DNA from: a candidate division WS6 bacterium OLB20
Lineage (GTDB): Bacteria; Patescibacteriota; Dojkabacteria; B142; OLB20
Assembly (NCBI GenBank): GCA_001567355.1
Contig: JYNZ01000003.1
Location: 605,793 to 669,792 of the forward strand
Direction of reading: 5' to 3'
DNA: 64,000 bases
This document shows, piece after piece, positions 4,811 through 45,253 of the stretch. Every line of letters begins with the position of its first letter. Positions within the stretch are counted from its first letter, which is position 1. Under the pieces are notes generated by a model, which was not told the DNA's origin, ran no database searches, and saw only the letters and a list, made by a program, of their open reading frames with translations. The translations under genes and the position numbers were made by a program.

Positions 4811-4879
4811 ATTCTGTTAAGACCAGGCCTTTTGTGATCTGGTACTATAATGCAGAGAATTAATTGAAAGTACACCCAC

Positions 4880-6996
4880 GTGCTTGATACTTTAAATCCG
4901 CCCCAGCGTGAGGCGGTTACAACCACTGAAGGACCTGTTCTGGTGCTTGCCGGCGCAGGCAGCGGTAAAACCAGGGTACTGACCTACCGCATGTTCTACC
5001 TGCTTAAAAAGAACATTGCACGTCCCGAAAACATTCTTGCTGTAACCTTTACCAACAAGGCTGCCGGTGAGATGAAGGATCGTATTGCCAGCCTGCTGCA
5101 GTCAAGCGGTTCTGCCATGTACAACCTTCCCTGGGTGGGGACGTTCCACTCTATATGTGTGCGGCTGCTCAAGGCCAACGCAGAACATATCGGTCTGTCG
5201 CGCGAGTTTACCATCTATGACCGGGCTGACCAGCTTGATGCGGTTAAAGAGGTAATGAAAAAGCTACAGATGGATACTAAAAACATAAAACCCAACGCCG
5301 TTCTAAACTACATCAGCTCGGCCAAGTCGGAACTGATCCCGGCATCAAGATATCCTGAATACGCAGTCGGCTATTTTCAGGACAGAGTTGCTGAAGTATA
5401 TCCCGAGTACCAGAAACTGCTGCGTTCCAACAGCGCTGTTGACTTTGACGATCTCATCATGGAGGCGGTACGGCTGCTTGAGCAGGAAGGTGATCTGCTT
5501 GAAAAGTACCGAACACTGTTTACTCATATTATGGTTGATGAGTACCAGGATACAAACCATGCCCAGTACCGGCTGATCCAGATGCTTGCAGAACGGCACA
5601 AGAATATATGCGTCGTCGGAGACGATGCACAATCGATTTACAGCTTCCGCGGGGCGACGATACAGAACATTCTCAACTTTGAAAAAGACTATCCCGACGC
5701 AAAAGTGATCAAGCTCGAGCAGAACTACCGGTCAACCAAGACTATTCTCGATGCATCAAATCTGGTCATCGCGCTCAACCCCAATCAGAAAAAGAAACAG
5801 CTCTGGACAGAAAACCACAGCGGTGAACCGATTACTGTCTATGAAGCGCTGGATGAAAAGGATGAGGCAGACTGGGTGGCAAAAAAATCAAGGAACTGAA
5901 CAGTTTTGATACTGCAGTCCTATACCGTACAAACGCACAGTCACGCGCACTTGAAGAGGCACTTCTGAGACGGGGGATCAGCTACCAGGTTATCGGCAGC
6001 GTCGAGTTTTACAAGCGCAAGGAGATCAAGGATGTGATGGCATACCTGCGCGTACTGTACAACCCGGCCGACGATATCAGTCTCAAACGTGTGATCAATG
6101 TTCCAAGACGGGGTATCGGCTCCACAACAATTGGCAACGTCGAACGTGAAGCCCTGGCTAACAGGCAGTCGATTATGCCGTACCTGCTCAGCCTTGCTCC
6201 GGAAGAGCTTGCCCGCTGGGGCAAAGCAGTCAGCGAGTTTACTGTCATGATGAAAAAACTGACTGCCATCTCGCAGCAGGAACCCGTGGGTGTTCTGATC
6301 AACGATCTTATCGAGCTGTCGGGCTACCGGCAGTCGCTGGATGACGGTACTGCCGAAAACGAGGCACGTCTTGAGAACATCCGCGAGCTCATCACCGTTG
6401 CTGACCAGTATAAGGAGCTCGATCCGGCAGAAAGCATGGAGCAGTTTCTTGAGGGAGTGTCCCTGATAGAGGGGTACAACAACCGTGATGATGGACCCAG
6501 TGTCAAACTGATGACAGTTCACTCGGCCAAGGGACTGGAGTTTGATAACCTGTTCATCGTAGGTATGGAAGAGGGCATTTTTCCGCACTCTAATGCCTAT
6601 ATAGAGCCCACACAGATGGAAGAGGAACGACGGCTCGCGTATGTAGCAATTACGCGGGCAAAGCAGCAGCTGTATATTGTGCACACGCAGTCACGTACAT
6701 TCTTCGGAAGCAGAAGCAGCAACCCGGTTTCACGCTTTGTCTCTGATATCCCTGATTCGCTTCTCAGGTTTGAGACATTCGGTGGTGTGACCTTTGACGA
6801 TGGCTGGCGCGAAGTCGTCGAGGATGATGATTACCAGCAGGAGTCGTTTATCGAACTTGAGCGCGGTGACAGGGTGGAGCACGACATCTTTGGTGTCGGT
6901 GTCGTCGTCGACTATGACGATTCACTGATCGTAATCGGTTTCAAAGGAGGACAGAAAGAGCTGTCGCGTGAATACGCAAAGCTAAAAAAACTCTAA
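4880..6996 (+). CDS. pcrA: ATP-dependent DNA helicase PcrA/UvrD; one gene split into ORFs 4880..5899 and 6034..6996 by a 1-nt frameshift in an A7 run (5881..5887)
   Basis: N-terminal Walker A (AGAGSGKTRVLTYR) and UvrD motifs. Reading 5881 onward in the +1 frame gives KKIKELNSFDTAVLYRTNAQSRALEEALLRRGISYQVIGSVEFYKRKEIKDVMAYLR, which joins the second ORF seamlessly. An 8th A would restore the frame. Confidence 0.88.
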
Positions 6997-7082
6997 ACTC
7001 CACTCCCGGTTTGTATTGCAGTACAATGCCTGTCCAGACCATTCCCCGGTAGTCTGAAGTATTACTTCAGCACATTTCAGCT

Positions 7083-8150
7083 ATGCGAAAGACACTTCAG
7101 GTGATTGCTCTTGTTCTGGCAGGTATATTTGCAGTGGCAGCGCCCGCCGCCGCAACTGGCGGCTGGGATTTTCTTCCGGAGTGGGGAGGGTATTACTCGG
7201 AGGGTGCGCTCAGTATCGGTTCATCCGATGAGCCAGATGGACTGCTGGGCCTCACAGCAAAATCAGGCAGCTATACCACACTCAGCTTTGCCGAAGCCGG
7301 AAAACACGGCAGCTGGGAGATCAGTAAGGTAAATGATGCATCGACCTACTATCCGCCAAACTCTCTGCGCATTTTAAACACAAGCAGGTCAGACGGGACA
7401 GCAAACTCTTCACCTGCTCTGGTAATTGACCAGTACAACCGCGTAGGACTTGGCAGACGGGATCCGCAGTATAAACTGGATCTCAACTACCATGGTGACA
7501 GGCAGGCACGGTTTCTTGCAAACACACAGTCAAATGCGCTGCTGCTGATCGAAAACCAGAATGGTGCAGGTGGCAGTGTGACAGGTTATGCCAATACTGC
7601 AACAGGGGCTGCCTACTATTCCGGACTTGCAGCAGATCAGTCATTTAAAATCGGCAGCGACAAAGAACTTACAAACGATCCTTTTATGAGTATCATGCCA
7701 AACGGCTACGTTGCCCTTGGAGAACATATCGCGCAATCGCAGCTGCATGTGTTTGGAACAAAAGGTGATGACGTACGGATGATATTGCAGGAAAAGGACG
7801 GCACAGGTGACTGGCGTATCCTCAAAACAACCGATGATGGTTTTGATCATCGGGGTGCAAACCGCCTGGTGTTTGCAGCCACATCGACTGGAGGCTCATT
7901 TCTGGATAACGCAATGGTACTTGGTAGTGGCGGTAACGTAGGATTTGGTGTCAACCATATGCCCAGTGTGTTGACTGTAAACGAGCGAAACGGCAGTGCC
8001 CTGACCATCAAGGATCAAACCGCGCAGTTTCAGGCGGACATCAGCTCCGGCCAGCTGCAGATTAAAAGCATGAACAGTGATTACAACGTCAAAGACATAC
8101 TCATGAAAATCGGCCACAACGGAGAGGTGTGCATCGGGTCAGGGTGCTAA
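7083..8150 (+). CDS. Secreted hypothetical protein (signal peptide, Gly/Ser/Thr-rich beta-type sequence)
   Basis: 355-aa ORF with a cleavable-looking signal peptide MRKTLQVIALVLAGIFAVAAPAAA. No recognised catalytic motif. Confidence 0.6.
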   Translation: MRKTLQVIALVLAGIFAVAAPAAATGGWDFLPEWGGYYSEGALSIGSSDEPDGLLGLTAKSGSYTTLSFAEAGKHGSWEISKVNDASTYYPPNSLRILNTSRSDGTANSSPALVIDQYNRVGLGRRDPQYKLDLNYHGDRQARFLANTQSNALLLIENQNGAGGSVTGYANTATGAAYYSGLAADQSFKIGSDKELTNDPFMSIMPNGYVALGEHIAQSQLHVFGTKGDDVRMILQEKDGTGDWRILKTTDDGFDHRGANRLVFAATSTGGSFLDNAMVLGSGGNVGFGVNHMPSVLTVNERNGSALTIKDQTAQFQADISSGQLQIKSMNSDYNVKDILMKIGHNGEVCIGSGC

Positions 8151-8159
8151 AATGACCGT

Positions 8160-8786
8160 ATGATCGAAGTCGAACAGCGCGCTGAAGTTACAGAACAACA
8201 GGCGGCTGCCATAGGCAGCCGCCTGAAAAAAGAGGGCAGGCAGACTCGCTCGTTTACCCGCTGCACGCTGGTACAGATCGATCGCAGCGATTTTGAGGTC
8301 ACCACTACCGGCACCTATGACCTTAAATTGCGTAATAACGAGCACGGGCAGCTGTTATTTACTGTAAAACAGGTTAATGCGTTCAATCCGACAACCAGAC
8401 TGGAAAGTGAGGTTTTACTCGAAGTAGCGCAACTAACTGAGCTGCTTACCAACCTGAAGATGCTGGGATTCATCTACTGGATCATGACAGTCGAGAAACG
8501 CGAAACCTTTGAATCTGATGGTGCCACATGGGATATCATCCGCCATCTGACAACCGGCAGGACTCTGCTTGAAGTCGAAGTCCCTGCAGCCAGTGATGCA
8601 GAAATTACAGCTGCCGAGAAACGTTCTGATGAACTGCTTGCTTCTGTTAACGCAAAACCATTATCGGATAGCGCACTTCACGATATTCTCTCCGGCCTGA
8701 ACCGGGCACACGACTATCAGTTTGACCTGTCAGTGGTCGACACTGACATTGTCGCACAACGCTTCACAGAATCTCTCAATAAATAG
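8160..8786 (+). CDS. Hypothetical cytoplasmic protein, possibly CYTH-like (triphosphate tunnel) domain
   Basis: 208-aa ORF starting MIEVEQRAEV, reminiscent of the CYTH N-terminal E-x-E-x-K strand. Weak assignment. Confidence 0.45.
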   Translation: MIEVEQRAEVTEQQAAAIGSRLKKEGRQTRSFTRCTLVQIDRSDFEVTTTGTYDLKLRNNEHGQLLFTVKQVNAFNPTTRLESEVLLEVAQLTELLTNLKMLGFIYWIMTVEKRETFESDGATWDIIRHLTTGRTLLEVEVPAASDAEITAAEKRSDELLASVNAKPLSDSALHDILSGLNRAHDYQFDLSVVDTDIVAQRFTESLNK

Positions 8787-8970
8787 CTGAAAATACCCCT
8801 CTTTTTGTAACACCCACAGACAGATATATAAGCAAAATATACCATGATCCCTTGATCCGGTTTGCTCCTTAAAAAGAGAATAGTTACTGGACAATTGCTC
8901 CCGGCAGCCTGCACATACCGTGTTCAGACCGCCTGGGGCAATTTGTGGACCCTGGGGATATGGAGGAATC

Positions 8971-9624
8971 ATGAAAGCTCTAAAAACACTGTTCGTACTC
9001 GTAATTCTGGTTTCAATCTTTGCAACCTTCTCATCGGTATCTGCACAGACCACACCGCCGTGCTATGGTCTCGCAGGGGTAGAATATGTGGCATGTATGG
9101 TCGAAAGTTATCCCGACCAGCAACTGCCTCCATTCATGACATTGCCAAGTGTTATCGTAGTAAATGGGCCGGTTTGCCCAATACTGCACGAGGCTGAAAA
9201 ATATCTCATAACTCTGAGCTTGCCCAATGGCGGTGAAAGTTGTACTTTGGTTGACCGCTACGATGTGACTGTCGCGCTGAATCAGTTTGGTTATGAATTT
9301 GCACCTGACCAGTTTCTGATTACATTACGACAGGATTCTGGCACAGCAACGTTGATTCTTGACGATGCTATACATGAAGAGACTGCCATACCTCTCATCG
9401 AGATTGCAGAAAGCCCCGAAATGGACCGCCTGGTCTGGCATGGAAATTACGATTTCCAACCTACACAGGAAGGAACTCTTATTCCGCCAATGCTTCTTGG
9501 TGTGGCAACAACCATTATCAGGAATAATCCCGGATATGAAATCTGGAATGTAATGTACAAACTGACCAGCCCTGAAGGTGCAATTACAATCACCTTCACA
9601 CATGTGGAGGAGACAGAGAACTAA
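8971..9624 (+). CDS. Secreted hypothetical protein
   Basis: ORF 8920..9624. The preferred start is the internal ATG at 8971, preceded by GGAGG (8962..8966). The signal peptide is MKALKTLFVLVILVSIFATFSSVSAQ. Confidence 0.55.
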   Translation: MKALKTLFVLVILVSIFATFSSVSAQTTPPCYGLAGVEYVACMVESYPDQQLPPFMTLPSVIVVNGPVCPILHEAEKYLITLSLPNGGESCTLVDRYDVTVALNQFGYEFAPDQFLITLRQDSGTATLILDDAIHEETAIPLIEIAESPEMDRLVWHGNYDFQPTQEGTLIPPMLLGVATTIIRNNPGYEIWNVMYKLTSPEGAITITFTHVEETEN

Positions 9625-9665
9625 CGATTACCTCCTCTAATAAATTCCCCAGTCCGAAACGGTTA

Positions 9666-9688
9666 ACCTGCTGCGCTCCAGCGCAGGT
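9666..9688. terminator. GC-rich hairpin between convergent genes (bidirectional terminator candidate)
   Basis: acctgctgcgctccagcgcaggt. Arms CTGCGCT/AGCGCAG or ACCTGC/GCAGGT are perfectly complementary. Confidence 0.4.
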
Positions 9689-9717
9689 AACAATTTCCCC
9701 CAGTAACTATTCTCGGA

Positions 9718-10730
9718 CTACACCAGCTTCTTCAGTCTGATCTTCAGTTTCTGCAGTTGAGAAAGTATGCCAAACATGCGGTATTTTGTGCCGTTTAAGA
9801 CCAGCACGCGTGTTTTAGCAAAACAGTGGTCGGTACCGCCAAAGCCGTGCTTGAACGAGCTGATGCTCTCGAGCGGATGACCCTTCGTATAATTGCCGTT
9901 CAGATCGCGCGGGGCAACACCCCAGTGGTCGTAATACCTTCTGCCGAGAGCGGAAGTCATCTTCATCGCCTCCCATTTAAGCATATACCCCGCCTCAAGA
10001 TCCCGGCCTTCTGATGTGACACCTCCGTACAACTCGTAGACCGATATCTCATCAAGCGCGACAAGGTAGGCACCGACAACAGCCCCGTGATGTTCGGCAA
10101 GCAGTATACGAGCAAGGTCCTTCTGCGATAACTGTTCCCATACTTTGAGAAAATAATTCTTGTCGTGCATCACGTAATCCGTGGCCTTAAAGATCTCCTG
10201 CATGACGGTATAGAACGCATCGACTGCGGAAGCATCATGCGTATGAATACTGACGGTCACACCATGACGTTCAGCTTTTTTAATGTTTCTTCTGTACTTT
10301 CCTTTCATGCCTGACCAGACGGCATCTGCACTGACAGTCTCAACAACACTGGTACACTCGGGCTGCACGCGGTAATCGGTTGCAGGCAGGGACTTGGCAA
10401 AGTAACTGTCCTCTTCGTGATCAAACTCAAACAGTACAAAATCACATACACTGTTTGCACTGAGCCAGGTCTTAAGTTCGCGAACTATCTTTCAAAATGA
10501 AGCAGCGGCAGCGACGCCTTTGGTGAATAACCGATCCTCACGCCTGCTGTCTGCCTGATCAGCACCTGCAGGACAGCAATGATCTCATCATCCAGCCGGA
10601 TGATAAACCGCAGCGGTTCCCAGCCGGGACGTTTAACCTCACCCCACGCACTGTGCTGCAGTACATGGCCCTGTGTCAGCTTCCATGCTGCATCATATTC
10701 CTCAAGGTTGTCAGTTATTTTGAGATCCAT
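9718..10730 (-). CDS. FemAB-family aminoacyl-tRNA-dependent transferase (paralog 1), split by a frameshift at a T3/A3 run (10490..10492)
   Basis: N-terminal ORF 10485..10730 and C-terminal ORF 9718..10368 (GTG start) both show FemAB/FemX-like sequence. The downstream frame is open from 10491, so one extra A gives a continuous protein of about 335 aa. Confidence 0.7.
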
Positions 10731-11954
10731 AAATTGGGTTTAATGAAGCGGGCAATACGGACAGCATCGTCAGGAGTGACATTAACCGATGTCGGCAGAT
10801 TAACAATGTGTTTGGCATATAGCTCTGCTTTTGGTGCGCTGCCGGTCTGATAGCGGAAACGCTCCAAGGTACCCTCGGGTGCATAGAGAATGGTCTTATA
10901 CCAGTCCCCGATGACAACATGATTCTTTTTAGCCTGCTGCAGCGCCAGCTGCTGATCATTAACGAGCACAGGAAACCTGAGGTAGTTATGTTCTCCTTCT
11001 GTTTCGTAGGTTATCCCAAGCTCTCTGCTGTAGACCGCTGCTATGATACGCCGGTGAGCGTTCAAATCTCTCAGCTTTGAAAACTGCCGGATACCTAGCC
11101 GGGCCAATGCTCCTGGCATCTGTGCAGGAAACCACGATGGTTTAACCGTCCTGTATTCTTCGTCCTCAATCATATTGCCAAGCATCCCGAAGCGGTGCGC
11201 TATCCATGTCAGAATTCTTCCGGCAGTCAGTTTGCCGATACCAAGATAATAGACTGGAGTAACGATACTCCAGAACACCGGATTCGTCAGAGAAAGAAGC
11301 ACCCGCAACCTGCTGAAGCGGGGAGCAGATGCGACAGACGCCCGTACCTGAGCAACCAGGTTGGTGTCTCTGGTCAGAACCATTCCGCCACGGACGGTGG
11401 AAATGGCTTTTTCGATCCCGAATGTGAGAATCGCGGCATCACCAAGCAGACCAAGTTTGCGTCCGCGCAATGTTCCACCAAGTGTATGGGCAAGGTCTTC
11501 GATGATTTTCACGCCGGGACCGGTAATCTCTTTAACGGCTTCAACATCAGCCGGCATACCGAATGTGTGCTGCACAAGAATGGCGCGCGTACGTTCTGAA
11601 ACTTTGCTTTTAAGATCAATCAGATTGATGTTGAAATTATCATCCGTATCCACATAAACCGGTGTCGCACCAAGCCAGATCACCGGATTAGCGACTACCA
11701 GACAGGTAAATGCCGGCAGAATGACCTCATCACCGGGACCAACACCATAGCTTTGCAGGATGAGATAGAATGCAGAGCGTGCAGAATCAAGAGCAACGGT
11801 GTCAGCGCCATCAAAAAAAATCCGACACCTGCTTTTCAAATGCGGCGACCGGCTCCGGATCATACCACCTCCACGGTGTAACAAGCTGACGCAACGCCTC
11901 TCTTACATCATCGGACTGAGTGTTCGGCGAAGCTGCGATAAATACAGGTCTCAT
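10715..11954 (-). CDS. DegT/DnrJ/EryC1/ArnB-type PLP-dependent sugar aminotransferase; frameshift in A8 run 11813..11820
   Basis: ORF 10715..11884 matches the DegT core (DGADTVALDSARSAFYLILQSYGVGPGDEVILPAFTCLVVANPV). The true N-terminus is found in the other frame from ATG complement(11952..11954): MRPVFIAASPNTQSDDVREALRQLVTPWRWYDPEPVAAFEKQVSDFF. Seven A instead of eight fuses this to ...DGADTVALD. The ATG overlaps the upstream stop as ATGA. Confidence 0.8.
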
Positions 11955-13051
11955 CTGATGGAACGTAATAACGAAAACAGGCGGGACCGCAAAGGCAGAA
12001 CTTTGTCCCAGACCATATATTGTACAGGTTTAAGCGGCAAAGCAAGAATGCCGGCGTGATCAATCCGTACTCCGCCAAATGACAGCTTGGTATCCGAGTA
12101 TCCTTTATGCTGATCACTCCCGGGGATGATTCCCCAGAAATCATACACCTTGCATCCCGCTGCCTTTGCTGCAAGTACAGACTTCCACCTGAGCAGGTAC
12201 ATGGCCTTTACATTCGGGTGCAGGCGGTTGGACCCTGCATAAAAGGATGACGACCAGTAACCGGTGCGCTCCGAAATATTTATCGCAATTGTGTCACCTT
12301 CAAATGCTGTCTCAAACAGACTGACAGCAGCAGTGCCTTTAAACTCCTGCAGCAGTTTCTCAAACGAGGAGAAAGGCCTGATCGGATAACCGCCGGCACG
12401 CTCCTGCATATCCTCAAGCAGGGAGTAGAAGAGCTGCAGTTTTCCTGATATCTGAGGATCATCAGGCAGGTACTCGGTAACACTGACACCCTTGCGCTCT
12501 GCGTAACCGACATTGTAACGGGTATTCTTTTTCATCATCCCCAGGAGCTGCTCTTCGCTCAGGGCAAGATCATACAGCAGTTTGTACCGCGGCTGCATGT
12601 TACGGCCTGTCTTTTTATATCCGTTCTGCAGAAATGCGTTTAGAGCATCCTTGTCCGTAAACGGTTTCAGATTTTCGCTCAGATCTCCTTCGACGTACGA
12701 GCCAAGCTTCGGTTCAATCTCAATCGCAAAGCAGCCCAGATCAGAAGCGACCGAGCGGAGATGTGCAGTAAACTCTTTCAGGTGGGCAAACAGATTTTCA
12801 GTTGATGCAAAAACAGGTCCGTGCGGAACATACGCAAGGTTTCCAAGCGGACCGGCTGGTTTAATGAGCATCTGCGCAGTAAGTAACGTTCTGCCATCCT
12901 CGACCAGAGCAAGCCTGTGCGGCGTCCAGCCCTCAGTGCGTTTAACCTCACCCCACTGCCAGTAGTTAAGAATGTCACCCCACGGGGAACTGTCGATAAA
13001 CCTGTTCCATTCGGGATCAGGATCGTTGTAGACACGCAGTTCAGTTGCCAA
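11951..13051 (-). CDS. FemAB-family aminoacyl-tRNA-dependent transferase (paralog 2), intact
   Basis: 366-aa ORF with FemA/FemX-like sequence throughout. It overlaps the downstream degT start by 4 nt and the upstream GT-C gene by 11 nt. Confidence 0.8.
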   Translation of the reverse strand: MATELRVYNDPDPEWNRFIDSSPWGDILNYWQWGEVKRTEGWTPHRLALVEDGRTLLTAQMLIKPAGPLGNLAYVPHGPVFASTENLFAHLKEFTAHLRSVASDLGCFAIEIEPKLGSYVEGDLSENLKPFTDKDALNAFLQNGYKKTGRNMQPRYKLLYDLALSEEQLLGMMKKNTRYNVGYAERKGVSVTEYLPDDPQISGKLQLFYSLLEDMQERAGGYPIRPFSSFEKLLQEFKGTAAVSLFETAFEGDTIAINISERTGYWSSSFYAGSNRLHPNVKAMYLLRWKSVLAAKAAGCKVYDFWGIIPGSDQHKGYSDTKLSFGGVRIDHAGILALPLKPVQYMVWDKVLPLRSRLFSLLRSIR

Positions 13052-14726
13052 GATACTCCAGTCTTACGTAAATACTGTATACAGATCCGTCACTCATCTC
13101 TTTTTGTGCAGCCAGAAAGAAGCGGTCATTATTCTCGACATACTCGCGTAACTGTTCATACTTATCCGCCCATATCTCGCCGGCCTCAGGACTGTCAGTG
13201 ACTATTACAAAATCAGCTTCGTCAACCTCGGCCTTGCCTGTTACGAGGTCAGTATAGCGCGAAAACTCATCAGACGAGGAAATAGTTACACCCTGCTGGG
13301 ATGCATACCAGATCAGCTGTGCATCGTTAAACAGCGGCTGCTCTGCGGTGTTGTAAACACGCGGCTGTTCATCCTCCAGAGGAATGTAATAGCTGAGCAC
13401 AAACGAGTACGGCTCACGGAACGCCTCACTGCGGGTATATGGACCGGTCGCCTCGTTAAGTCCTGTTCGCGGAAGAGCGGGCATGAACGTGGCAACACTC
13501 TGCAGAAACGGGTACACGCAAAGTGCAGCTGTTATCAGGGTACCGGTCATCCAGATGCGCGAACGGGAACCGGTGCGAACCGCCACATATGCTGCAGCAA
13601 GTATCCAGAATGCAATCACCGGTACAAAGTAGCGCGCTGTTTTACTCTCGTTTAGTGTCAGAGAGATCAGCATTGGAAGCGGCGTCAATATAATCAGTGC
13701 AAGATTGCTTCCCAGAAGTCCGTCAACGAAGCGGTTAAGAGAGGAAAACCTGTGCCTGACACTCCTGATAACAGTACTGCGTGCTGCTGCTGCACCTGCA
13801 AAAACCTGTAACAGCATAAAGACTGTCAGCGGCCAGCCGATAGTCCAGGTGACAATCACGTACCAGAAGCGAACTGCGGTCACCGGTGAACTCACCGGCC
13901 CGAGAGAGTAGTACTGCGCCAGCTCACCACTGCTCGTAAATCTCGCAAACTCAAGGTATGTTGCGAAATTGGATGCATACCAGGTAAGTGTAAACGGAAT
14001 AAACCCGATCAGTGTAATGACAAAGTATTCAACATATGTGTGCCAGCTTTTCTTCTGCCGCAACTGCCAGTAGATAAAGTAGGTCAGGGGAACAACCAGA
14101 TAGACCGGCATCAGAAACCTCAACAGAAACGCAAGCGAAAGCAGAACACCAGTTGCAAAGAACAGTGTCCGCGAAGATGACGAACGGTAACGTACAAACA
14201 GATAGGTGAGCAGCAGTACAAAAAAGGTCTGCAGCGTCTCACTCATGTATAACCTTGCAAACCCGTACGCACCAGGCATGACAGAGTAGAGGACAAGCGC
14301 CAGCAGTCCGATTGCATTTGCCTGACGTGCCGGAAGCCCGAAAAACAATTTGCGTGCCAGCAGAAAAATCAGGATGCCGTTAACTGCTAGCACCAGCAGA
14401 TTCATCATCAGTGCCGTATTCTCGGATACGCCAAAGATCAGAAATGCAGGTACAGATAGTGCTGCAAATAACGGTGTTCTTGGAAAACGGTCCGGATGAA
14501 TAAACATGTTCTCCCACGTATTGTATGCACCAACAAAATCACCGCGTGACAGTGGTTCGTAGAGCTCAAATGTTCCCTGCAGAAACCGGGCATCGTCACC
14601 GATAAATGGAAGCCGCTGATCTGCAGTTATCCAGAAGACATTGATAAAGAAGAAGAGAGCGGTGACAATAGTCACCGTAGTGAACACATGTCTGTTGCCT
14701 GTCAGTTGTGAAAACAGTCTGCGCAT
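13041..14726 (-). CDS. GT-C glycosyltransferase of the ArnT/PMT (GT39/GT83-like) family, multi-TM
   Basis: 561 aa with at least 10 predicted TM helices. The first extracytoplasmic loop has DDARFLQGTFELYEPLSRGDF, like the DE-x-R-Y-A-E motif of ArnT/PMT_2 enzymes. Confidence 0.75.
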   Translation of the reverse strand: MRRLFSQLTGNRHVFTTVTIVTALFFFINVFWITADQRLPFIGDDARFLQGTFELYEPLSRGDFVGAYNTWENMFIHPDRFPRTPLFAALSVPAFLIFGVSENTALMMNLLVLAVNGILIFLLARKLFFGLPARQANAIGLLALVLYSVMPGAYGFARLYMSETLQTFFVLLLTYLFVRYRSSSSRTLFFATGVLLSLAFLLRFLMPVYLVVPLTYFIYWQLRQKKSWHTYVEYFVITLIGFIPFTLTWYASNFATYLEFARFTSSGELAQYYSLGPVSSPVTAVRFWYVIVTWTIGWPLTVFMLLQVFAGAAAARSTVIRSVRHRFSSLNRFVDGLLGSNLALIILTPLPMLISLTLNESKTARYFVPVIAFWILAAAYVAVRTGSRSRIWMTGTLITAALCVYPFLQSVATFMPALPRTGLNEATGPYTRSEAFREPYSFVLSYYIPLEDEQPRVYNTAEQPLFNDAQLIWYASQQGVTISSSDEFSRYTDLVTGKAEVDEADFVIVTDSPEAGEIWADKYEQLREYVENNDRFFLAAQKEMSDGSVYSIYVRLEYLGN

Positions 14727-14767
14727 GTTGTATAACTCAAACAGCTATGGGTACCCACATGTTACAG

Positions 14768-15895
14768 CTATTTGAGCAGCATTGGCATAACTACGTGGAC
14801 AAAATCCTTGTCCTTGGTGTCCAGAAACACACCTGGTTTTGTCGGTCCAAGCGTCTCAAATACCAGATCATCAGACTTGATAGTATTGATCATGTCTGCC
14901 AGAAAGCGGACATTATAGCCGGTTTCAAAATCATCTCCCGAGACATCATGGATATCAACCGAGCTTTCGTTGTTTCCGACATCGGCAACGGTCGCGCTTA
15001 GTGTCAGTTTGGCATCTGCAACATTTACCGCAAAACGGGCCTTGTTGCCCACAGCATTTCGGGCAAAGATATTGACCACTTTAAGCATGTCGGTAAAATC
15101 CTTTTTGTTGATGCTCACCCTCAGGTTCTGATCACTGGGCAGAATCTCTTCGTAATTTGGAAACTTGCCCTCGATCAGGCGCGTGGAGAGCTCTACATCA
15201 TCCATCTTAAACAGCATCTGATTTTTACTTGCCATCAGATAGACCTTGAGAATATCGTCATCTCCTGAGACATCGCCTATCAGACGCGCAACCTCAGCGA
15301 GCGCCTTGGCAGGAACAATCTCAGTCAACGGTTCTTCTCCTGTCTTACTAAGCTTAAGCACTTTCTTTGATAACCTGAATCCGTCAACTCCTACCATGGT
15401 CAGCTGCTTTCCTTCCGTTTTCATAAGCAGACCGGTCAGAACAGGGCGGGATTCATCGGTAGCTGCGGCAATCGCTGTTCTGGTCACGGCATCTGCAAAG
15501 GTTGAGGCATTCACCTCGAGCAGACTCTCACCCTCAACGCCAGGTACCGTCGGGAAGTCGTCGGCAGGGATGACAAAGAACTCAGCATTGTTGTCCACAG
15601 AACTGACCGCAAGCTTCTGATCGTTCATGACTAGTTCAATCTTGCCTGCCTTCAAGGAGTTTACAAACTCAAACAGGAGTTTTGCCGACACAGTGATCTT
15701 TCCTTCTGTTTCAACCTCGGCACCTATCCACGTACTTATCCCGATCTCCAGATTGGTTGCGGAGAGCTTTAATCGGGACTTTTCGGTCTCGATCAGTACA
15801 TTTGCAAGTACGGGGATATTTGGTCTGCTGCTGACTGCTTTTATGACGTGGTTCAAGGCTTTTGACAGGTTTTCCTGCATTAAGGATACTCTCAT
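14768..15895 (-). CDS. dnaN: DNA polymerase III beta sliding clamp
   Basis: 375 aa. The three-domain DnaN sequence is clear (MRVSLMQENLSKALNHV...PVLANVLIE...). Confidence 0.92.
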   Translation of the reverse strand: MRVSLMQENLSKALNHVIKAVSSRPNIPVLANVLIETEKSRLKLSATNLEIGISTWIGAEVETEGKITVSAKLLFEFVNSLKAGKIELVMNDQKLAVSSVDNNAEFFVIPADDFPTVPGVEGESLLEVNASTFADAVTRTAIAAATDESRPVLTGLLMKTEGKQLTMVGVDGFRLSKKVLKLSKTGEEPLTEIVPAKALAEVARLIGDVSGDDDILKVYLMASKNQMLFKMDDVELSTRLIEGKFPNYEEILPSDQNLRVSINKKDFTDMLKVVNIFARNAVGNKARFAVNVADAKLTLSATVADVGNNESSVDIHDVSGDDFETGYNVRFLADMINTIKSDDLVFETLGPTKPGVFLDTKDKDFVHVVMPMLLK

Positions 15896-16136
15896 GTGGA
15901 TAGGTGGTTACTTATAATATATTTAATTAAAGCTTAGTTTTATTATTATTAGGGCGTGTGTATATGTGAACATTGTAGGGCAGAATGGCTGAATGACACA
16001 AGAAAAGAGCTGTTCTGACCTGTGAATATCTCTGGGATAACTATTACTGTAATTATCCCGATCATATTCTCCCGCATTAATATTAAGAAATCCCTGTCTG
16101 TGGAAAGGGGCGTGTATGACAAGGGATAACTTTTAC
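15896..16136. promoter_or_regulatory. oriC: Candidate chromosomal origin oriC (dnaA-dnaN intergenic): AT-rich unwinding element plus clustered DnaA-box-like 9-mers
   Basis: AT-rich stretch 15910..15952 (tacttataatatatttaattaaagcttagttttattattatta). Box-like sites: ctgggataa 16032..16040, ttatcccga 16053..16061, tgtggaaag 16099..16107, aagggataa 16122..16130 (three share TTATCCC), and tgtgaatat 16021..16029. Confidence 0.6.
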
Positions 16137-17522
16137 TCAAAGATCGCTGGTCTGAATCGCCTCTCTCAGCATATCCACCTGGTTCTTAAATCCGTCATCT
16201 ATCATCAGCTTACTCTTGATCTTGTCGACGGCATGCAAAACGGTTGTGTGGTCTTTTCTGTTCATATACATGGCAACCTGTTCCAGTTTATACCCGAAGT
16301 CCTCACGCAGAATATACATACAGACCTGGCGCGCGAATGCAATATCGGCCGTGCGTCTCGGGCCTTTTAAATCCTTTACGGTGATGTTGAATTCGCGAGA
16401 GACATGCTTAAGGATTGAGGGGACTTTAACCTTTTCGCGCTTTGTTACCGTATCTTTTCCAAGTATTTTTGCGACCTCTTCAAGCGTCAGTTCCTCCTCA
16501 ACCATGGAACTGTACAGTGAGATTTTCTGAAGCGAACCCTCAAGCTCACGCACATTCTCGGTGACATGTTTGGCAATAAATTCGTACACGTTCATCGGCA
16601 GAGAGATACCCATCATCCGCGCCTTGTTTTCTATGATTGCAAGTCGCATCTCAAAATCAGGTTTACTGATATCCACAGTCATACCCCCCTGGAACCGTGA
16701 TCGCAGACGGTCCTCAATCCCGTCGATCTCATCAGGTGAACGGTCCGAGATCAGTACGATCTGTTTTTTGTCGTTATAGAGAACGTTAAAGGTATTGAAG
16801 AATTCGTTCTGTGTCTCCTGCCATTTGGAAATAAACTGGATGTCGTCAATGATCAGAAGATCAAGTGTACGGTACTTCTGTCTGAACTGAATATTTTTAC
16901 CGGAGCGGATCGCCTTGACCATGTCGTTCAGAAAACCTTCGCTTGAGACGTACAGTACTTTTTTGTACGGATCGGTCTCGAGCAGGTCACGTGCAATTGC
17001 CTGGGCAAGATGAGTTTTACCCAGTCCTGTCTTACCGTAAATAAACAGGGGATTGTATGAATCACCAGGCTTGGTTGCTACCGCGACAGCGGCTGCATGC
17101 CCAAGTTTGTTTGACGGGCCGACGATGTAGTTGGCAAACGAGTAATTACTGTTAAGGCCGGCATTTTTTAATGTCTGTTCGAGATGGTTTTCCTGGCCGT
17201 AGGTTGCGGTAAACATCGGCGCCTCTTTGATTATCTCTTCGGCCGTGATCTTGGGACTTGGTTTGTTTACCAGTGATTTGTCTATCTCAAATGTGACCTG
17301 CAGGTCTGAACCGTACACATATGAAAGTGTTTCGCGGATCATGCGCATGTGCTTTTTTTGCAGCCAGTCGCTTGTATAGCTGTTTTTCACACCGATCACA
17401 GCAGTGGCACCCTTAACATCAAGCAGACGGGTGTCTTTAAACCACGTTTTAAACTGGGCAGGTGAATCCAGTTTTACTTCCATCTGTGCAAGGGCAATCT
17501 TCCAGAGTTCGGCAAGATCCAT
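16137..17522 (-). CDS. dnaA: Chromosomal replication initiator DnaA
   Basis: 461 aa with an AAA+ Walker A (GKTGLGKTHLAQAI) and the DnaA C-terminal DNA-binding domain. Confidence 0.96.
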   Translation of the reverse strand: MDLAELWKIALAQMEVKLDSPAQFKTWFKDTRLLDVKGATAVIGVKNSYTSDWLQKKHMRMIRETLSYVYGSDLQVTFEIDKSLVNKPSPKITAEEIIKEAPMFTATYGQENHLEQTLKNAGLNSNYSFANYIVGPSNKLGHAAAVAVATKPGDSYNPLFIYGKTGLGKTHLAQAIARDLLETDPYKKVLYVSSEGFLNDMVKAIRSGKNIQFRQKYRTLDLLIIDDIQFISKWQETQNEFFNTFNVLYNDKKQIVLISDRSPDEIDGIEDRLRSRFQGGMTVDISKPDFEMRLAIIENKARMMGISLPMNVYEFIAKHVTENVRELEGSLQKISLYSSMVEEELTLEEVAKILGKDTVTKREKVKVPSILKHVSREFNITVKDLKGPRRTADIAFARQVCMYILREDFGYKLEQVAMYMNRKDHTTVLHAVDKIKSKLMIDDGFKNQVDMLREAIQTSDL

Positions 17523-17590
17523 ATGTCGACTGGCTTAGATATAAGCAGATATTGGGCAATTCGAAGTTGGGTGCTACCAGCATACAAAAA

Positions 17591-17599
17591 TGTGGATAA
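17591..17599. promoter_or_regulatory. Perfect consensus DnaA box (TGTGGATAA = TTATCCACA) in the dnaA promoter region
   Basis: Exact 9/9 match 68 nt upstream of the dnaA start. A TATAAT-like gatataatc lies at 17637..17645 for the divergent yidD. Confidence 0.6.
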
Positions 17600-17650
17600 C
17601 TGTGCAAGGGTCAAACAGGATTTTGCTGAAAAATGCGATATAATCTTGAG

Positions 17651-17941
17651 ATGACGTTCATACTATCAATCCCGAAAAATATCGCGAAGCTGCTCATCCG
17701 TGTGTATCAGAAAACGCTTTCGTTTGATCACAGCTTCTGGGCAAGGCCTGAGAAGTTCAGAGTCTGTGTCCACTACCCCAGCTGCTCGCAGTTTACCTAC
17801 GAGGCTATTGACCGGTTTGGTGTTGTGCGCGGCAGTCTGATGGGTGGGTCACGGATTACCCGCTGTAACGGATTCACCCAGGGGGGATATGATCCGGTAC
17901 CGGATCACTTTACACTGCGGGCAAATTATCAGAAACCCTAA
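17651..17941 (+). CDS. yidD: Membrane protein insertion efficiency factor YidD
   Basis: LIRVYQKTLS...CVHYPSCSQFTYEAIDRFG...RITRCNGFTQGGYDPVP fits the YidD/PF01809 consensus. ORF track start 17633; the internal ATG at 17651 is preferred. Confidence 0.7.
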   Translation: MTFILSIPKNIAKLLIRVYQKTLSFDHSFWARPEKFRVCVHYPSCSQFTYEAIDRFGVVRGSLMGGSRITRCNGFTQGGYDPVPDHFTLRANYQKP

Positions 17942-18657
17942 CGTATGTCTTTGAAGGACTTCCTGCTGATCGGCTTGCCGGTAAACATCATATATACGCC
18001 ATTTATCAGCAGATCTTTACTGTTCCAGGCAACCGTCGGAAAACTTCCGCTGTAACGTCTTCCCGACATAGGCAGATAGTAATCCTTGATTATCACAACC
18101 TTACCGATCTTTTTCAGCTGCAGCGTAAAGTATGCGTCGGAATTGAGATCAAAGCCGTGATTGAATCCTCCGACTTTTCGCCATGCCTCTTTTGTCGCCG
18201 ATAAAGATGCGCCCCACATGGCTTCGCGGAAGTTAAAGTTGGTTGAAAAGTGGTAGATACGTGTAAACCACGGTTCGGCGTCGTAAAACGTAATCCTGGT
18301 ACCGGCTCCTACAACCTCGGGGTCTCTGTAGGCATCGGCAATCACACGCACAAAGCGTTCATCCGGCAGTGTATCAGCATCGGTCTGGATGACGATGTCG
18401 CCGCGCGCTTCGCTGAAGCCCCGTTCTACGGCAAAACGGTTGCCCTTCTGATCCTCGCGCACCACCCGCGCCCCATGAAGACGTGCGATTGCAGCTGTTT
18501 TGTCAGTGCTTGCGTTATCAATTACAAGTAACTCGTATTCCTCATCAAAGTCCTGATTGCGCAGACGTTCCAGTGTCAGACCGATAAGTTTTTCTTCGTT
18601 GTGGGCAGGGACAAAGACGGTTACTCGAGGATGAGTGAGATTGTTGTTAACCGGCAT
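17938..18657 (-). CDS. Family 2 glycosyltransferase
   Basis: VFVPAHNEE...LLVIDNASTDKT...TDADT are GT2 (GT-A fold, DxD) hallmarks. Confidence 0.8.
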   Translation of the reverse strand: MPVNNNLTHPRVTVFVPAHNEEKLIGLTLERLRNQDFDEEYELLVIDNASTDKTAAIARLHGARVVREDQKGNRFAVERGFSEARGDIVIQTDADTLPDERFVRVIADAYRDPEVVGAGTRITFYDAEPWFTRIYHFSTNFNFREAMWGASLSATKEAWRKVGGFNHGFDLNSDAYFTLQLKKIGKVVIIKDYYLPMSGRRYSGSFPTVAWNSKDLLINGVYMMFTGKPISRKSFKDIR

Positions 18658-42236: not shown

Positions 42237-42293
42237 GACGCCTGTACTATACTACGCTGCCTACAGATCCGCAATGAAGGCAATTTTGCAGGA

Positions 42294-44193: not shown

Positions 44194-45168
<975 letters not shown>

Positions 45169-45253
45169 ATCTGACAGCAGACGTTCGGGAATTATCTCTT
45201 CCTTTTCTGTATTTTCGGTGAAACTTTTCCGGTCGGAGCAGGATATTACACGT

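Follow-up and report, generated by a model that had tools for sequence, protein, structure and literature searches.

Four minus-strand genes follow dnaN in a 64,000-nt stretch of the genome of the candidate division WS6 bacterium OLB20 (the window), and they quite possibly represent the Dojkabacteria form of a Patescibacteria-wide cell-wall module that has partly decayed in this strain, which is the reading we tentatively favour. The genes encode a GT-C membrane glycosyltransferase, two FemAB-family proteins (Fem1 and Fem2) and, between the latter, a DegT-like pyridoxal phosphate (PLP) enzyme. The functional coupling of DegT with Fem that a first-pass annotation of this DNA had proposed is strongly supported, being conserved in Dojkabacteria and in about 70 further loci. 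The coupling is real and broad, and its context is that of peptidoglycan, not of an Ara4N-like lipid pathway.

The order and coordinates of the four genes given in the first-pass annotation were confirmed (Table 1), and all three gene overlaps that it had described are present in the sequence: 11 nt between the GT-C stop and the Fem1 start (13041-13051), an ATGA overlap of the Fem1 stop with the DegT ATG (11951-11954), and 16 nt between the DegT stop and the Fem2 start (10715-10730). The GT-C gene starts 41 nt from dnaN. In a Pfam search, all four family assignments scored above the curated cut-offs: PMT_2 gave 40 bits on GT-C (cut-off 26.1), FemAB gave 103.1 bits on Fem1 and 61.1 bits on the repaired Fem2 (cut-off 24), and DegT_DnrJ_EryC1 gave 184.8 bits on the repaired DegT (cut-off 19.8). 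The repaired Fem2 also matched Acetyltransf_6 with 56.9 bits. The description of the row as four intact genes did not stand, as DegT and Fem2 are both frameshifted.

Table 1. Features of the gene row after dnaN (positions in the window)
Feature	Position	Strand	Domain or basis
dnaN (DNA polymerase III beta clamp)	14768..15895	-	Pfam DNA_pol3_beta, DNA_pol3_beta_2, DNA_pol3_beta_3; upstream neighbour
GT-C membrane glycosyltransferase (PMT_2/ArnT-like), 561 aa, intact	13041..14726	-	PMT_2
Fem1, FemX-like aminoacyl-tRNA-dependent transferase, 366 aa, intact, TTG start	11951..13051	-	FemAB
DegT-like gene, whole span	10715..11954	-	DegT_DnrJ_EryC1
DegT-like 5' fragment, 47 codons + TGA	11811..11954	-	N-terminal SPN..DD clade motif, then stop
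DegT-like frameshift site, T8 homopolymer (A8 on + strand)	11813..11820	-	Frame analysis
DegT-like 3' part, +1 frame relative to ATG 11954; holds PLP lysine	10715..11818	-	Mechanical ORF 10715-11884
Fem2-like gene, whole span	9718..10730	-	FemAB, Acetyltransf_6
Fem2-like 5' fragment, 81 codons + TAG	10485..10730	-	Aligns with N-termini of five orthologues
Fem2-like frameshift site, 1-nt lesion in GAAAG, no slippery motif	10488..10492	-	Frame analysis
Fem2-like 3' part, -1 frame	9718..10491	-	Mechanical ORF 9718-10368

In OLB20, neither DegT nor Fem2 has an uninterrupted reading frame. The two spans measure 1240 nt (10715-11954) and 1013 nt (9718-10730), neither of which is divisible by three. 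When read from the ATG at 11954, DegT stops after 47 codons at a TGA (11811-11813) directly behind the T8 run, where the 0-frame reads UUU UUU UGA, and the rest of the protein is encoded in another frame past this stop; with one T removed from the run, the gene encodes a protein of 412 aa, alignable over its full length with the orthologues. When read from the ATG at 10730, Fem2 stops after 81 codons at a TAG (10485-10487), its remainder lies in the -1 frame from about 10491, and with one A added the gene encodes 337 aa, which could be aligned with five orthologues. The orthologues of both genes are uninterrupted at the two lesion points. The same split gene calls (47 + 382 aa and 81 + 196 aa) recur on contigs from SRR29904083, SRR29904084 and SRR29904086, and two of those contigs, compared as DNA, matched the window at 100% identity and without gaps for 21,101 and 8,788 nt. 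Given that the same lesions appear in three other independent assemblies, they are reproducible and do not reflect a one-off assembly error.

Frameshifts do not necessarily mean lost function, and the operon would still be functional in this strain if the lesions were shared consensus errors or if expression were rescued. We regard this as rather unlikely but by no means negligible. In DegT, the lesion amounts to one base within an 8-nt homopolymer, with the 0-frame UGA directly after it, and the product could be restored by transcriptional slippage or by a +1 shift of the ribosome at U UUU UUU UGA, where tRNA-Phe might re-pair one base ahead on the U-run in a manner analogous to the +1 shift of prfB. 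Outside the lesions, DegT and Fem2 are open and fully alignable to their orthologues, so any inactivation would be recent. At least two further genes of the window are frameshifted, an ABC ATPase gene and uvrD, whose lesion lies in an A7 run. Against rescue or shared error, however, assembly of three other sequencing runs gave the identical sequence, the Fem2 and ABC ATPase lesions lie outside homopolymers and have no slippery site, and the orthologues of other species need no frameshift, indicating that the DegT site is not a conserved recoding signal. That DegT and Fem2 are both disrupted is weak evidence for a link between the two: the window carries at least four frameshifted genes, and we estimate that, if four lesions fell at random among about 55 genes, two of them would strike neighbouring genes in about 20% of cases.

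Conservation within the lineage was assessed in 26 Dojkabacteria loci with Fem1 orthologues. In 14 of them (14 related species genomes), the Fem1 orthologue is preceded by dnaN in a dnaA-dnaN arrangement, so the position after dnaN, which had been thought unusual, is normal in this lineage. DegT is present in 15 of the 26 loci, and the Fem1-DegT gap is 43-84 nt in 10 of these 15. The usual local order is dnaA-dnaN-(GT-C)-Fem1-DegT-(Fem2), with GT-C and Fem2 optional. The exact order of the window, GT-C-Fem1-DegT-Fem2, recurs in L003 and L004; DegT and Fem2 are still paired at 6-8 kb from Fem1 in L008, L026 and L045; and three Fem genes stand in a row without DegT in L023, L024 and L028. GT-C occurs at this position in 5/26 related loci, its orthologues there were confined to L003, L004, L007, L008, L026 and L045, and none was seen in the loci of the wider DegT clade. 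GT-C had been presented as a member of the operon; the comparison shows it to be a variable, optional neighbour and not a core part.

The window's DegT also shares 33-41% identity with DegT proteins of about 70 further loci in which the surroundings differ. In this wider sample of 71 diverse non-Dojkabacteria metagenome loci (median DegT pairwise identity, 48%), a Fem gene is the immediate downstream ORF of DegT in 43 of the 63 evaluable loci and lies somewhere in the locus in 60 of the 71, while MurF directly precedes DegT in 46 of the 57 evaluable loci. Most junctions are overlapping reading frames of 4-11 nt. The wider context is the division/cell-wall (dcw) cluster, with murF, mraY, ftsW, murG, ftsQ and ftsI, and in most lineages the DegT gene is thus shown to sit between murF and femX in a division/cell-wall operon. 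A full example of this arrangement is that of L064, MurA-MurE-MurC-MurB-MurD-hydrolase-MurF-DegT-Fem-MraY-FtsW-MurG-FtsQ-FtsA-FtsZ, in which the hydrolase, MurF and Fem were named by Pfam/NCBIfam, MurE, MurC, MurB and MurD by reading of N-terminal sequences, and others partly via the precomputed Pfam annotation of a parallel locus (L125). Rearranged orders were also seen: hydrolase-DegT-holin-Fem-DgkA-MraY (L125), dnaN-Fem-DegT (L126, a lineage at 39% identity), Fem-Fem-DegT (L039), and Fem followed by an opposite-strand murG and then DegT (L124). The DegT genes of the clade adjoin Fem in all architectures seen except the dnaN-DegT of one lineage (L042), which has no Fem nearby; conversely, an orthologous Fem adjoins MurF in L035-L037, where DegT is absent. 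Neither gene, therefore, strictly needs the other as a neighbour. As no mur gene was found in the 64-kb window, the peptidoglycan link for OLB20 rests on homologues.

Profile comparisons identify Fem1 and Fem2 as FemX-like aminoacyl-tRNA-dependent transferases. Against solved structures, the Fem1 family profile matched FemX of S. aureus (E = 7.5e-40) and W. viridescens (E = 2.5e-24), and the Fem2 family profile matched S. aureus FemX (E = 8.4e-21); these two are the best solved relatives of both families. The only natural-product-type enzyme found among solved structures was matched far more weakly by the Fem1 family (E = 7e-7, versus 7.5e-40 for FemX) and not at all by the Fem2 family profile. 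Both families resemble peptidoglycan FemX far more than natural-product Fem-like enzymes. K37 and R225 of Fem1 align with Lys36 and Arg211 of FemX_Wv, which bind the pyrophosphate and the D-Ala-D-Ala of UDP-MurNAc-pentapeptide (PMC2655667), and Fem2 appears to lack the Arg211 equivalent. FemX/FmhB of S. aureus, FemX of W. viridescens and MurM, the aminoacyl-tRNA transferases that initiate peptidoglycan branches, share Pfam PF02388 with Fem1 and Fem2, and Fem1 is similar in size to FemX_Wv, without the long coiled-coil of FemA and FemB. Pairwise similarity is nevertheless weak (phmmer E = 1.1e-12 to S. aureus FemX and 1.3e-5 to FemX_Wv), and the two Fem proteins score 58.6 and 52.5 bits on the FemX equivalog model, against a cut-off of 500. 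The Fem genes described here are fixed neighbours of a DegT-like PLP enzyme, and we know of no such fixed neighbour for characterised Fem genes.

The closeness of both families to peptidoglycan FemX, together with the K36 and R211 equivalents of Fem1, is also consistent with independent functions within one operon. Fem1 and Fem2 would then be ordinary cross-bridge enzymes whose acceptor is the lysine at position 3 of the stem peptide, DegT would separately make an amino sugar, either for a glycopolymer linked to the wall or for the modification of a glycan, the adjacency of the genes would reflect co-expression with cell-wall genes, and GT-C might deliver the product in Dojkabacteria. Loci with Fem and no DegT (L023, L024, L035-L037) or with DegT and no Fem (L042) fit this account, as do the GlmS and GlmU-like genes that share some of the DegT operons and the GT-C genes that recur near the module, on the opposite strand, at about 30 loci. 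We consider it unlikely, however: the DegT-Fem adjacency outlasts at least five rearrangements while the flanking genes change, the reading frames overlap at most junctions, DegT has no conserved association with glycopolymer genes (glycosyltransferases, flippase or dehydratase), and the orthologue of the window's GT-C is missing from most loci.

The first-pass assignment of the DegT-like ORF to the sugar-aminotransferase family was upheld. The lysine and the Asp-Glu pair of the PLP motif (K182, D153 and E152) are invariant across the clade alignment, and the AF2 model (pLDDT 94.3) has a DegT-like fold whose nearest structures are ArnB, WbpE and perosamine synthase. The window's DegT is shown to belong to a separate, well-conserved DegT clade, of which no description was found in the searchable literature. 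The operon-type proteins share 66-80% identity across clusters named Patescibacteria or Nealsonbacteria (at least 120 clusters listed), which fits an important conserved function.

The translational coupling of DegT to murF in 46/57 loci could also mean that the clade does not in practice act as a sugar aminotransferase, its role being to supply or edit the amino acids used in building the wall. The enzyme could provide D-Ala or D-Glu for the Mur ligases, in the place that ddl or alr often occupies beside murF, or act on the free alpha-amine of an aminoacyl group, on aminoacyl-tRNA or on a newly added branch residue. Neither ddl, alr nor murI was seen in the conserved cluster, and SerRS and LysRS lie just upstream in 35 and 29 loci, respectively. 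An NCBIfam model exists for a fusion of MurF with alanine racemase, which shows that an association of MurF with a PLP enzyme can occur. Fic25 (PDB 8gyj) is a DegT-family enzyme that acts on an amino-acid-derived substrate, and GlyA of Chlamydia, another fold-type-I PLP enzyme, has been characterised as a potential D-Ala source (PMC3935232). Nearly all characterised DegT-family members, however, use sugar-like carbonyls, the nearest structures are nucleotide-sugar aminotransferases, and in Dojkabacteria DegT travels with Fem genes, not with murF, which leaves amino acid supply improbable. We know of no racemase or D-specific activity in the DegT family.

The pathway proposed in the first-pass annotation lies outside peptidoglycan: DegT would form a nucleotide amino sugar, the GT2 encoded at 44194 would load it onto polyprenyl phosphate, the Fem enzymes would aminoacylate the sugar amine, and GT-C would transfer the product to an envelope acceptor. 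The four protein families are correct, the exact gene order is found again in L003 and L004, there is a known case of an amino sugar being acylated from aminoacyl-tRNA (see below), and ArnB ranks with the structures closest to the DegT model (TM about 0.74, 21-23% identity). GT-C and GT2 families both occur in the window, and GT2 44194 has a GtrB/ArnC architecture with two C-terminal hydrophobic helices. It is thus of the type claimed, but it is not linked to the row: it is encoded on the opposite strand at a distance of 30 kb, in a glycan locus of its own, where its neighbours are a GT4, a pyruvyl transferase and a polytopic membrane protein of 632 aa. Neither ArnA, ArnD, nor any other keto-sugar-forming enzyme (dehydratase or dehydrogenase) was found among the larger ORFs of the window or conserved beside the module. 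DegT scored 116 on the ArnB equivalog model (cut-off 631); GT-C, with about 10 predicted hydrophobic segments, gave no NCBIfam hit, the ArnT model included, and most related loci lack it. The conserved partners of DegT are MurF and Fem, not Arn proteins, and the home of its clade is the dcw operon. An Ara4N-like pathway is accordingly very improbable.

In the wall-module reading, Fem1 would start a side chain on the peptidoglycan precursor, in a FemX-like manner, and Fem2 would add a further residue to it. DegT would act in the same pathway, most likely by transaminating a carbonyl group of a wall precursor, either UDP- or lipid-linked; the resulting amine would then be acylated by a Fem transferase, with aminoacyl-tRNA as the amino acid donor. 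In OLB20, only Fem1 and GT-C would be certainly functional, and DegT may be partly rescued by slippage at the U-run. To our knowledge, ordinary peptidoglycan precursors have no carbonyl for such a transamination, and adjacency in a long conserved operon can mean shared regulation instead of consecutive reactions. That no dehydratase or dehydrogenase to form the keto substrate was found beside the module or among the larger ORFs of the window counts against this scheme as well. The scheme would follow a familiar pattern, in which a sugar aminotransferase is paired with an N-acyltransferase: in PglE-PglD, PseC-PseH, WbpE-WbpD, QdtB-QdtC and ArnB-ArnA, the gene of a DegT-family aminotransferase lies beside that of an acyltransferase for the new sugar amine, and PseH is a GNAT-fold acyltransferase. 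Fem proteins have a GNAT-type fold. The gene logic is the same; those pairs, however, use acetyl-CoA where DegT-Fem would use aminoacyl-tRNA, and the DegT-Fem pair has no keto-sugar-forming partner and resides in a peptidoglycan operon rather than a glycan locus. Aminoacylation of a sugar amine by a Fem enzyme is plausible as the putative chemistry. In BD-12 biosynthesis, the FemABX-like Orf11 transfers an amino acid from Gly-tRNA to an amino-sugar amine (reviewed in PMC12945691), the very chemistry that the first-pass annotation had envisaged, which provides a precedent, although Orf11 is a Streptomyces secondary-metabolite enzyme.

A further precedent for Fem-like enzymes beyond cross-bridge synthesis is TIGR03019, the PEP-CTERM/XrtA-associated FemAB protein of exopolysaccharide loci, which belongs to the FemAB family and occurs at a polysaccharide, not a peptidoglycan, locus. 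The two Fem proteins score 24.1 and 36.5 bits on this model (cut-off 260), and their locus differs in having no PEP-CTERM system and a dcw context instead. In L026, a Peptidase_M23 gene follows Fem1, and an equal-sized ORF in L045 and L008 has an N-terminus near-identical or similar to that of the L026 gene.

The four minus-strand genes that follow dnaN were searched against Pfam, and all four family assignments made in the first-pass annotation passed the model cut-offs, those of DegT and Fem2 after repair of their reading frames. The GT-C product has about 10 predicted hydrophobic segments, which corresponds to a polytopic membrane topology, and the FemAB match of Fem1 spans both halves of the protein. 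The three described overlaps are present: 11 nt at 13041-13051, an ATGA at 11951-11954 and 16 nt at 10715-10730. A promoter and terminator scan of positions 9400-17800 gave nothing above shuffle expectation that would divide dnaN from the row, and an Rfam scan of the window found two tRNAs only and no leader or riboswitch near the row. Thus the families and overlaps of the four-gene row held up, but its frames are not all intact, as both DegT and Fem2 are broken. A short soluble GT2 glycosyltransferase gene (239 aa; 17938-18657, minus strand) lies upstream of yidD/dnaA, and a counterpart with 74% identity occupies the same position (4384-5100) in L003, the locus of a complete Dojkabacteria genome (CP129475.1).

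Coordinates and family assignments of the genes of the row and its upstream neighbours in the window
Feature	Position	Strand	Family evidence
dnaA	16137-17522	-	
dnaN	14768-15895	-	
GT-C membrane glycosyltransferase, 561 aa	13041-14726	-	PMT_2 (PF13231), 40 bits, cut-off 26.1
Fem1, 366 aa	11951-13051	-	FemAB (PF02388), 103.1 bits, cut-off 24, two matched stretches
DegT-like gene	10715-11954	-	DegT_DnrJ_EryC1 (PF01041), 184.8 bits, cut-off 19.8
Fem2	9718-10730	-	Repaired 337-aa protein: FemAB 61.1 bits, Acetyltransf_6 56.9 bits

The spans of DegT (1240 nt) and Fem2 (1013 nt) are not continuous frames. From the ATG at 11954, DegT runs for 47 codons to a TGA at 11811-11813, which directly follows a run of eight T (A8 on the plus strand, 11813-11820), and the remainder of the protein lies in the next frame. 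This one extra T leaves ORFs of 47 aa and 389 aa in the window, and its removal gives a protein of 412 aa that aligns with its relatives over the full length. From the ATG at 10730, Fem2 runs for 81 codons to a TAG at 10485-10487, with the other 256 codons shifted to the -1 frame. The lesion is confined to 10488-10492 (GAAAG), where a slippery sequence is absent, and the addition of one A gives a protein of 337 aa that can be aligned to five orthologues. Database records place the Fem1 protein on four contigs. Three of these derive from other sequencing runs (SRR29904083, SRR29904084 and SRR29904086), and the split gene calls on all three are identical (47 + 382 aa for DegT and 81 + 196 aa for Fem2). 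Contig L001 (SRR29904086) matches window 1951-23051 over 21,101 nt and contig L002 (SRR29904084) matches window 5539-14326 over 8,788 nt, both gapless and 100% identical. Since the same splits occur on three contigs, two of which are identical to the window, the lesions are reproducible. The identity of L001 and L002 to the window also means that the same strain was sampled again in other datasets.

Two further genes of the window are broken. The uvrD/pcrA gene (4880-6996, plus strand) is split into 339 aa and 320 aa at an A7 run (GGCAAAAAAATC) near 5885-5895; the split is also present on the independent contig L001. In related Dojkabacteria the orthologue is undivided and 711-715 aa long. An ABC-transporter ATPase gene (41290-42300, minus strand) has a frameshift at ATCATGGTAAAG, near 42050-42075 (~42060) and outside a homopolymer, with the N-terminal Walker A part in a different frame from the remainder. 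The 64-kb window thus holds at least four broken genes (uvrD, the ABC ATPase, DegT and Fem2), and we treat the strain as one that, judged from these frames, probably carries several recent inactivating mutations. That DegT and Fem2 are both frameshifted was considered as evidence of co-loss and was given little weight, because, by our own estimate, four hits placed at random among ~55 genes would include an adjacent pair in ~20% of cases. The zero-frame sequence of the DegT site is U UUU UUU UGA, and by analogy with prfB some rescue could come from a +1 ribosomal shift or from slippage of the polymerase; the Fem2 site has no route to such rescue.

The database name of the Fem1 protein assigns it to candidate division WS6 bacterium OLB20, and its relatives belong to Dojkabacteria. 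A scan of one genome per species gave 36 loci, onto which the window proteins were mapped by tblastn, and the following counts refer to the 26 of these in which a Fem1 orthologue was present (46-61% identity). The position of the row after dnaN had been regarded as unusual; since dnaN lies upstream of Fem1 in 14 of the 26 loci, with dnaA also visible in 12 of those 14, this position is the lineage norm. DegT is present in 15 loci, in 10 of which the gap between Fem1 and DegT is 43-84 nt, and Fem2 follows DegT in five (L003, L004, L006, L008 and L026). The frames of DegT and Fem2 are unbroken in related genomes. A GT-C gene between dnaN and Fem1 was found only in L003, L004, L007, L008 and L026. 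The four-gene order recurs exactly in L003 and L004, but the linkage of GT-C is not conserved. Other genes fill a gap of 6-8 kb between Fem1 and DegT in three loci (L008, L026 and L045, the last from a metagenome), with DegT and Fem2 still adjacent. In L023, L024 and L028, also of Dojkabacteria, DegT is missing and the Fem genes form a run of three. The row in the window is a lineage-typical, partly broken instance.

In L026, the first gene inserted between Fem1 and DegT (3987-5795) encodes a Peptidase_M23 protein of 602 aa, and the genes after it encode large proteins, secreted or membrane-located, that have no match in Pfam. First inserted ORFs of the same size are found in L045 (1636-3444), with a near-identical N-terminus, and in L008 (11092-12906), with a similar one. 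The Peptidase_M23 family includes peptidoglycan cross-bridge endopeptidases.

From the GT-C/Fem/DegT/Fem row and an ArnC-like GT2 at 44194, the first-pass annotation had proposed an Ara4N-like aminosugar pathway with aminoacylation of the sugar amine. The GT2 at 44194 is indeed of the GtrB/ArnC type, with two C-terminal hydrophobic helices, but it is 30 kb off, on the other strand and among neighbours of its own: a GT4/GT1 gene (92-nt overlap), a polysaccharide pyruvyl transferase gene and a gene for a polytopic membrane protein of 632 aa that has no Pfam match. These genes appear to form a separate glycan locus (44194-49459, plus strand). An Arn system would include ArnA and ArnD and would have an ArnC-type GT2 and ArnT next to ArnB. 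Pfam scans of those ORFs of the window that reach 150 aa, and the annotation of 1951-23051, showed no ArnA, ArnD, 4,6-dehydratase or 3-dehydrogenase. The GT-C of the window matched no ArnT model, and its orthologues occur in few loci only. Without ArnA or ArnD among the scanned ORFs, with the GT2 unlinked and the GT-C linkage unconserved, the Ara4N-like proposal is kept as an improbable rival only.

The assignment of the DegT-like ORF to the sugar-aminotransferase family is upheld by its Pfam score, by its catalytic residues and by its fold. The PLP lysine (K182), E152 and D153 are invariant among 33 clade members, and the Asp that contacts the pyridine nitrogen is retained. The AlphaFold (AF2) model (pLDDT 94.3, pTM 0.93) has the predicted fold of a fold-type-I sugar aminotransferase. 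The nearest structures found by Foldseek were ArnB, WbpE, GDP-perosamine synthase, QdtB and PseC (18-24% identity, query-normalised TM 0.70-0.75), and profile searches agreed. None of the named sugar-aminotransferase equivalogs was reached: the scores and cut-offs were 116.3 and 631 for ArnB (NF008658), 120.6 and 423.5 for PseC, 122.4 and 420 for the LegC family, and 105 and 650 for DesI. Because these cut-offs were missed, the DegT of the window is best placed by sequence in a separate clade within the family. The clade departs from the family consensus in an N-terminal SPN..DD, in DSARSA replacing SGTAAL, in FTC and QHTFG, and in a C-terminal NLPT, and it has a conserved insertion of ~50 residues. 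A membrane anchor was considered for this hydrophobic insertion (residues ~215-268) and rejected, as a Kyte-Doolittle scan gave no membrane-length segment and the model predicts three well-packed helices with conserved polar motifs. Among homologues of the repaired DegT, identity declines smoothly from 58% to ~34%. The operon-type DegT proteins described below show 66-80% identity among the 120 protein clusters listed, which are annotated in generic terms only and come from sources named, among others, Patescibacteria group and Nealsonbacteria.

The wider operon context of this DegT clade is our main new result; its components are known families. The first three distant members were found in the arrangements Fem-Fem-DegT near a Mur ligase gene, Mur ligase-DegT-Fem with overlapping frames, and dnaA-dnaN-DegT. 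Metagenomes were then scanned with the clade alignment, which yielded 80 loci (33-48% identity); reference proteins were mapped onto these, ORFs called and neighbours clustered. The sample outside Dojkabacteria comprised 71 diverse loci, in which pairwise DegT identity had a median of 48% and fell to 29% at the lowest. The immediate downstream ORF of DegT is Fem in 43 of 63 evaluable loci, and Fem occurs anywhere in 60 of the 71; the immediate upstream ORF is a Mur ligase in 46 of 57. Across the 71 loci, the junctions mostly overlap by 4-11 nt. NCBIfam model TIGR01143 identifies the ligase as MurF, with a match from model position 63 on; in place of the usual N-terminal domain it has ~165 residues that include 3-4 hydrophobic helices. 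This feature suggests that the MurF of these Patescibacteria is membrane-anchored and possibly works at the membrane. The non-standard MurF, with a conserved W..L(K/W)EYR motif, was seen in L064 (6418-7995), L041 (4421-6004), L119 (446-1918) and about 60 further loci.

Two main forms of the operon were distinguished. The first reads FtsI-LysRS-SerRS-alpha/beta hydrolase-MurF-DegT-Fem-FtsQ, and the second, in metagenome locus L064, reads MurA-MurE-MurC-MurB-MurD-hydrolase-MurF-DegT-Fem-MraY-FtsW-MurG-FtsQ-FtsA-FtsZ. The hydrolase, MurF and Fem labels of L064 are Pfam-supported, and the names MurA, MurB, MurC, MurD, MurE, LysRS, SerRS, FtsI, FtsA and FtsZ are our own reading of the sequences. 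The precomputed Pfam annotation of locus L125 gave the same cell-wall operon picture. The DegT clade thus belongs to division/cell-wall (dcw) operons, on the same strand and tightly spaced, with FtsQ, MraY, FtsW, MurG and FtsI in the flanks. The scanned ORFs of the window itself (at least 150 aa) include neither mur nor fts genes.

The first-pass annotation was right that DegT and Fem are coupled, and their linkage within peptidoglycan operons outlasts the rearrangement of other neighbours. L125 has hydrolase-DegT-holin-Fem-DgkA-MraY without MurF; L126, of a lineage only 39% identical, has dnaN-Fem-DegT; and L124 has Fem, murG on the opposite strand and then DegT. The Ara4N-like pathway, taken as one outside peptidoglycan, agrees poorly with the peptidoglycan operons in which the clade sits. 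A rival explanation is that DegT and Fem have independent functions and are co-expressed from one operon. The counter-examples speak for it, as Fem adjoins MurF without DegT in L035-L037 and L042 has DegT without a nearby Fem; the adjacency that survives rearrangement argues against it.

The Fem groups were compared by their profile scores against solved structures, because a tree at 23-26% identity, the mutual identity of Fem1, Fem2 and the operon-type Fem, would not be robust; Fem1 is slightly nearer the operon type. The Fem1 family profile matched S. aureus FemX (lipid II:glycine glycyltransferase) with E=7.5e-40, W. viridescens FemX with 2.5e-24 and FemA with 3e-20, and a natural-product aminoacyl-tRNA-dependent peptide synthase with only 7e-7. 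For the Fem2 family profile the values were 8.4e-21, 2.5e-16 and 4.7e-13, respectively, and a natural-product match among solved structures was absent. Against the FemX equivalog (NF047883, UDP-MurNAc-pentapeptide-lysine N6-alanyltransferase; cut-off 500), Fem1 scored 58.6 and Fem2 52.5 bits, which marks them as relatives and not equivalogs. Lys36 and Arg211 of the Weissella viridescens FemX bind both phosphates and both D-Ala of UDP-MurNAc-pentapeptide (PMC2655667). Fem1 K37 and R225 align with these residues in a pairwise comparison, and among 34 homologues K37 is at least 90% conserved and R225 invariant; Fem1 thus retains the precursor-binding residues of the FemX type. In Fem2 the Lys equivalent is kept (K33) and the Arg equivalent is apparently missing.

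To our knowledge, nearly all characterised DegT relatives transaminate sugar-like carbonyls. The usual layout for N-acylated amino sugars is an aminotransferase gene beside an N-acyltransferase gene. Because of this chemistry, this gene layout and the precedent of BD-12 Orf11, a Fem-like enzyme that aminoacylates an amino sugar (PMC12945691), we propose with modest confidence that DegT acts in the same pathway as the Fem enzymes and makes the amine that Fem aminoacylates. In this proposal, a UDP- or lipid-linked wall precursor would receive an amine from DegT, and an amino acid would then be passed onto this amine from aminoacyl-tRNA by a Fem transferase. Fem1 would be a FemX-like, branch-initiating enzyme acting on the MurNAc-peptide precursor, and Fem2 would add one more residue. 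The chief weakness of this role for DegT is that no conserved enzyme forming a keto substrate accompanies it and that Fem and DegT can occur apart. A keto-sugar-forming enzyme was absent from the conserved neighbour clusters of 79 loci; it could be encoded elsewhere in the genome. A DegT directed at amino acids, supplying a D-amino acid or editing aminoacyl groups, is another rival, which fits the place beside murF and sits less well with the sugar-like substrates of the characterised relatives. Returning to the amine-forming role of DegT, we put forward only tentatively, and with some doubt, that the wall precursor of Patescibacteria is chemically non-standard, the DegT clade at murF-femX adding an amine (e.g. 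on a sugar) that Fem aminoacylates.

Both enzyme families, the Fem transferases and the DegT aminotransferases, are familiar on their own. The searchable literature held no description of a fixed, translationally coupled Fem-DegT pair in the peptidoglycan operon of a whole radiation, and no relevant paper on FemAB with DegT, on the candidate phyla radiation with FemX or an aminotransferase, or on Patescibacteria with DegT. By this literature and the generic database names, neither the DegT clade nor the murF-DegT-femX arrangement that recurs across Patescibacteria appears to have been described. The arrangement points to a possibly radiation-wide extra step of cell-wall precursor synthesis. 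If amine formation and Fem aminoacylation both take place, the resulting peptidoglycan modification and the enzymatic step behind it would both be hitherto undescribed, and if the pairing reflects consecutive chemistry, the wall precursor of the candidate phyla radiation would be unlike the textbook one. This would bear on how tiny epibionts build and cross-link their walls, on the antibiotics that act on them and on non-ribosomal uses of aminoacyl-tRNA. For OLB20 itself the outcome is more modest: a lineage-typical row, two of its four genes broken, that is not Ara4N-like.

Several further features accompany these genes. On the same strand and just upstream of murF-DegT-femX, SerRS was seen in 35 loci, LysRS in 29 and a 240-aa alpha/beta hydrolase in 54 (e.g. 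L054, L066, L087, L099, L102 and many others), and in L042 a cysteinyl-tRNA synthetase gene lies two genes past DegT. The synthetase genes may be there to supply the tRNA-dependent Fem step, or the arrangement may be housekeeping synteny and nothing more. After ftsQ, one or two GT-C-type genes lie on the opposite strand, convergent to murF-DegT-femX-ftsQ; they fall into three BLAST clusters of ~19, 11 and 4 loci (e.g. L054, L060, L062, L066, L087 and L099) and are not orthologous to the GT-C of the window. The long homologues of Fem1, two of ~610 aa (P0066 and P0085) and three of 528-551 aa (P0050, P0068 and P0091), were considered as Fem-DegT fusions and rejected, their extra length being Lys/Glu-rich low-complexity sequence without a second domain. 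In some Fem1 homologues the extra length consists of Lys/Glu/Ser-rich insertions of 150-250 residues in mid-protein or of C-terminal tails, and the basic tails of the long homologues might bind tRNA.
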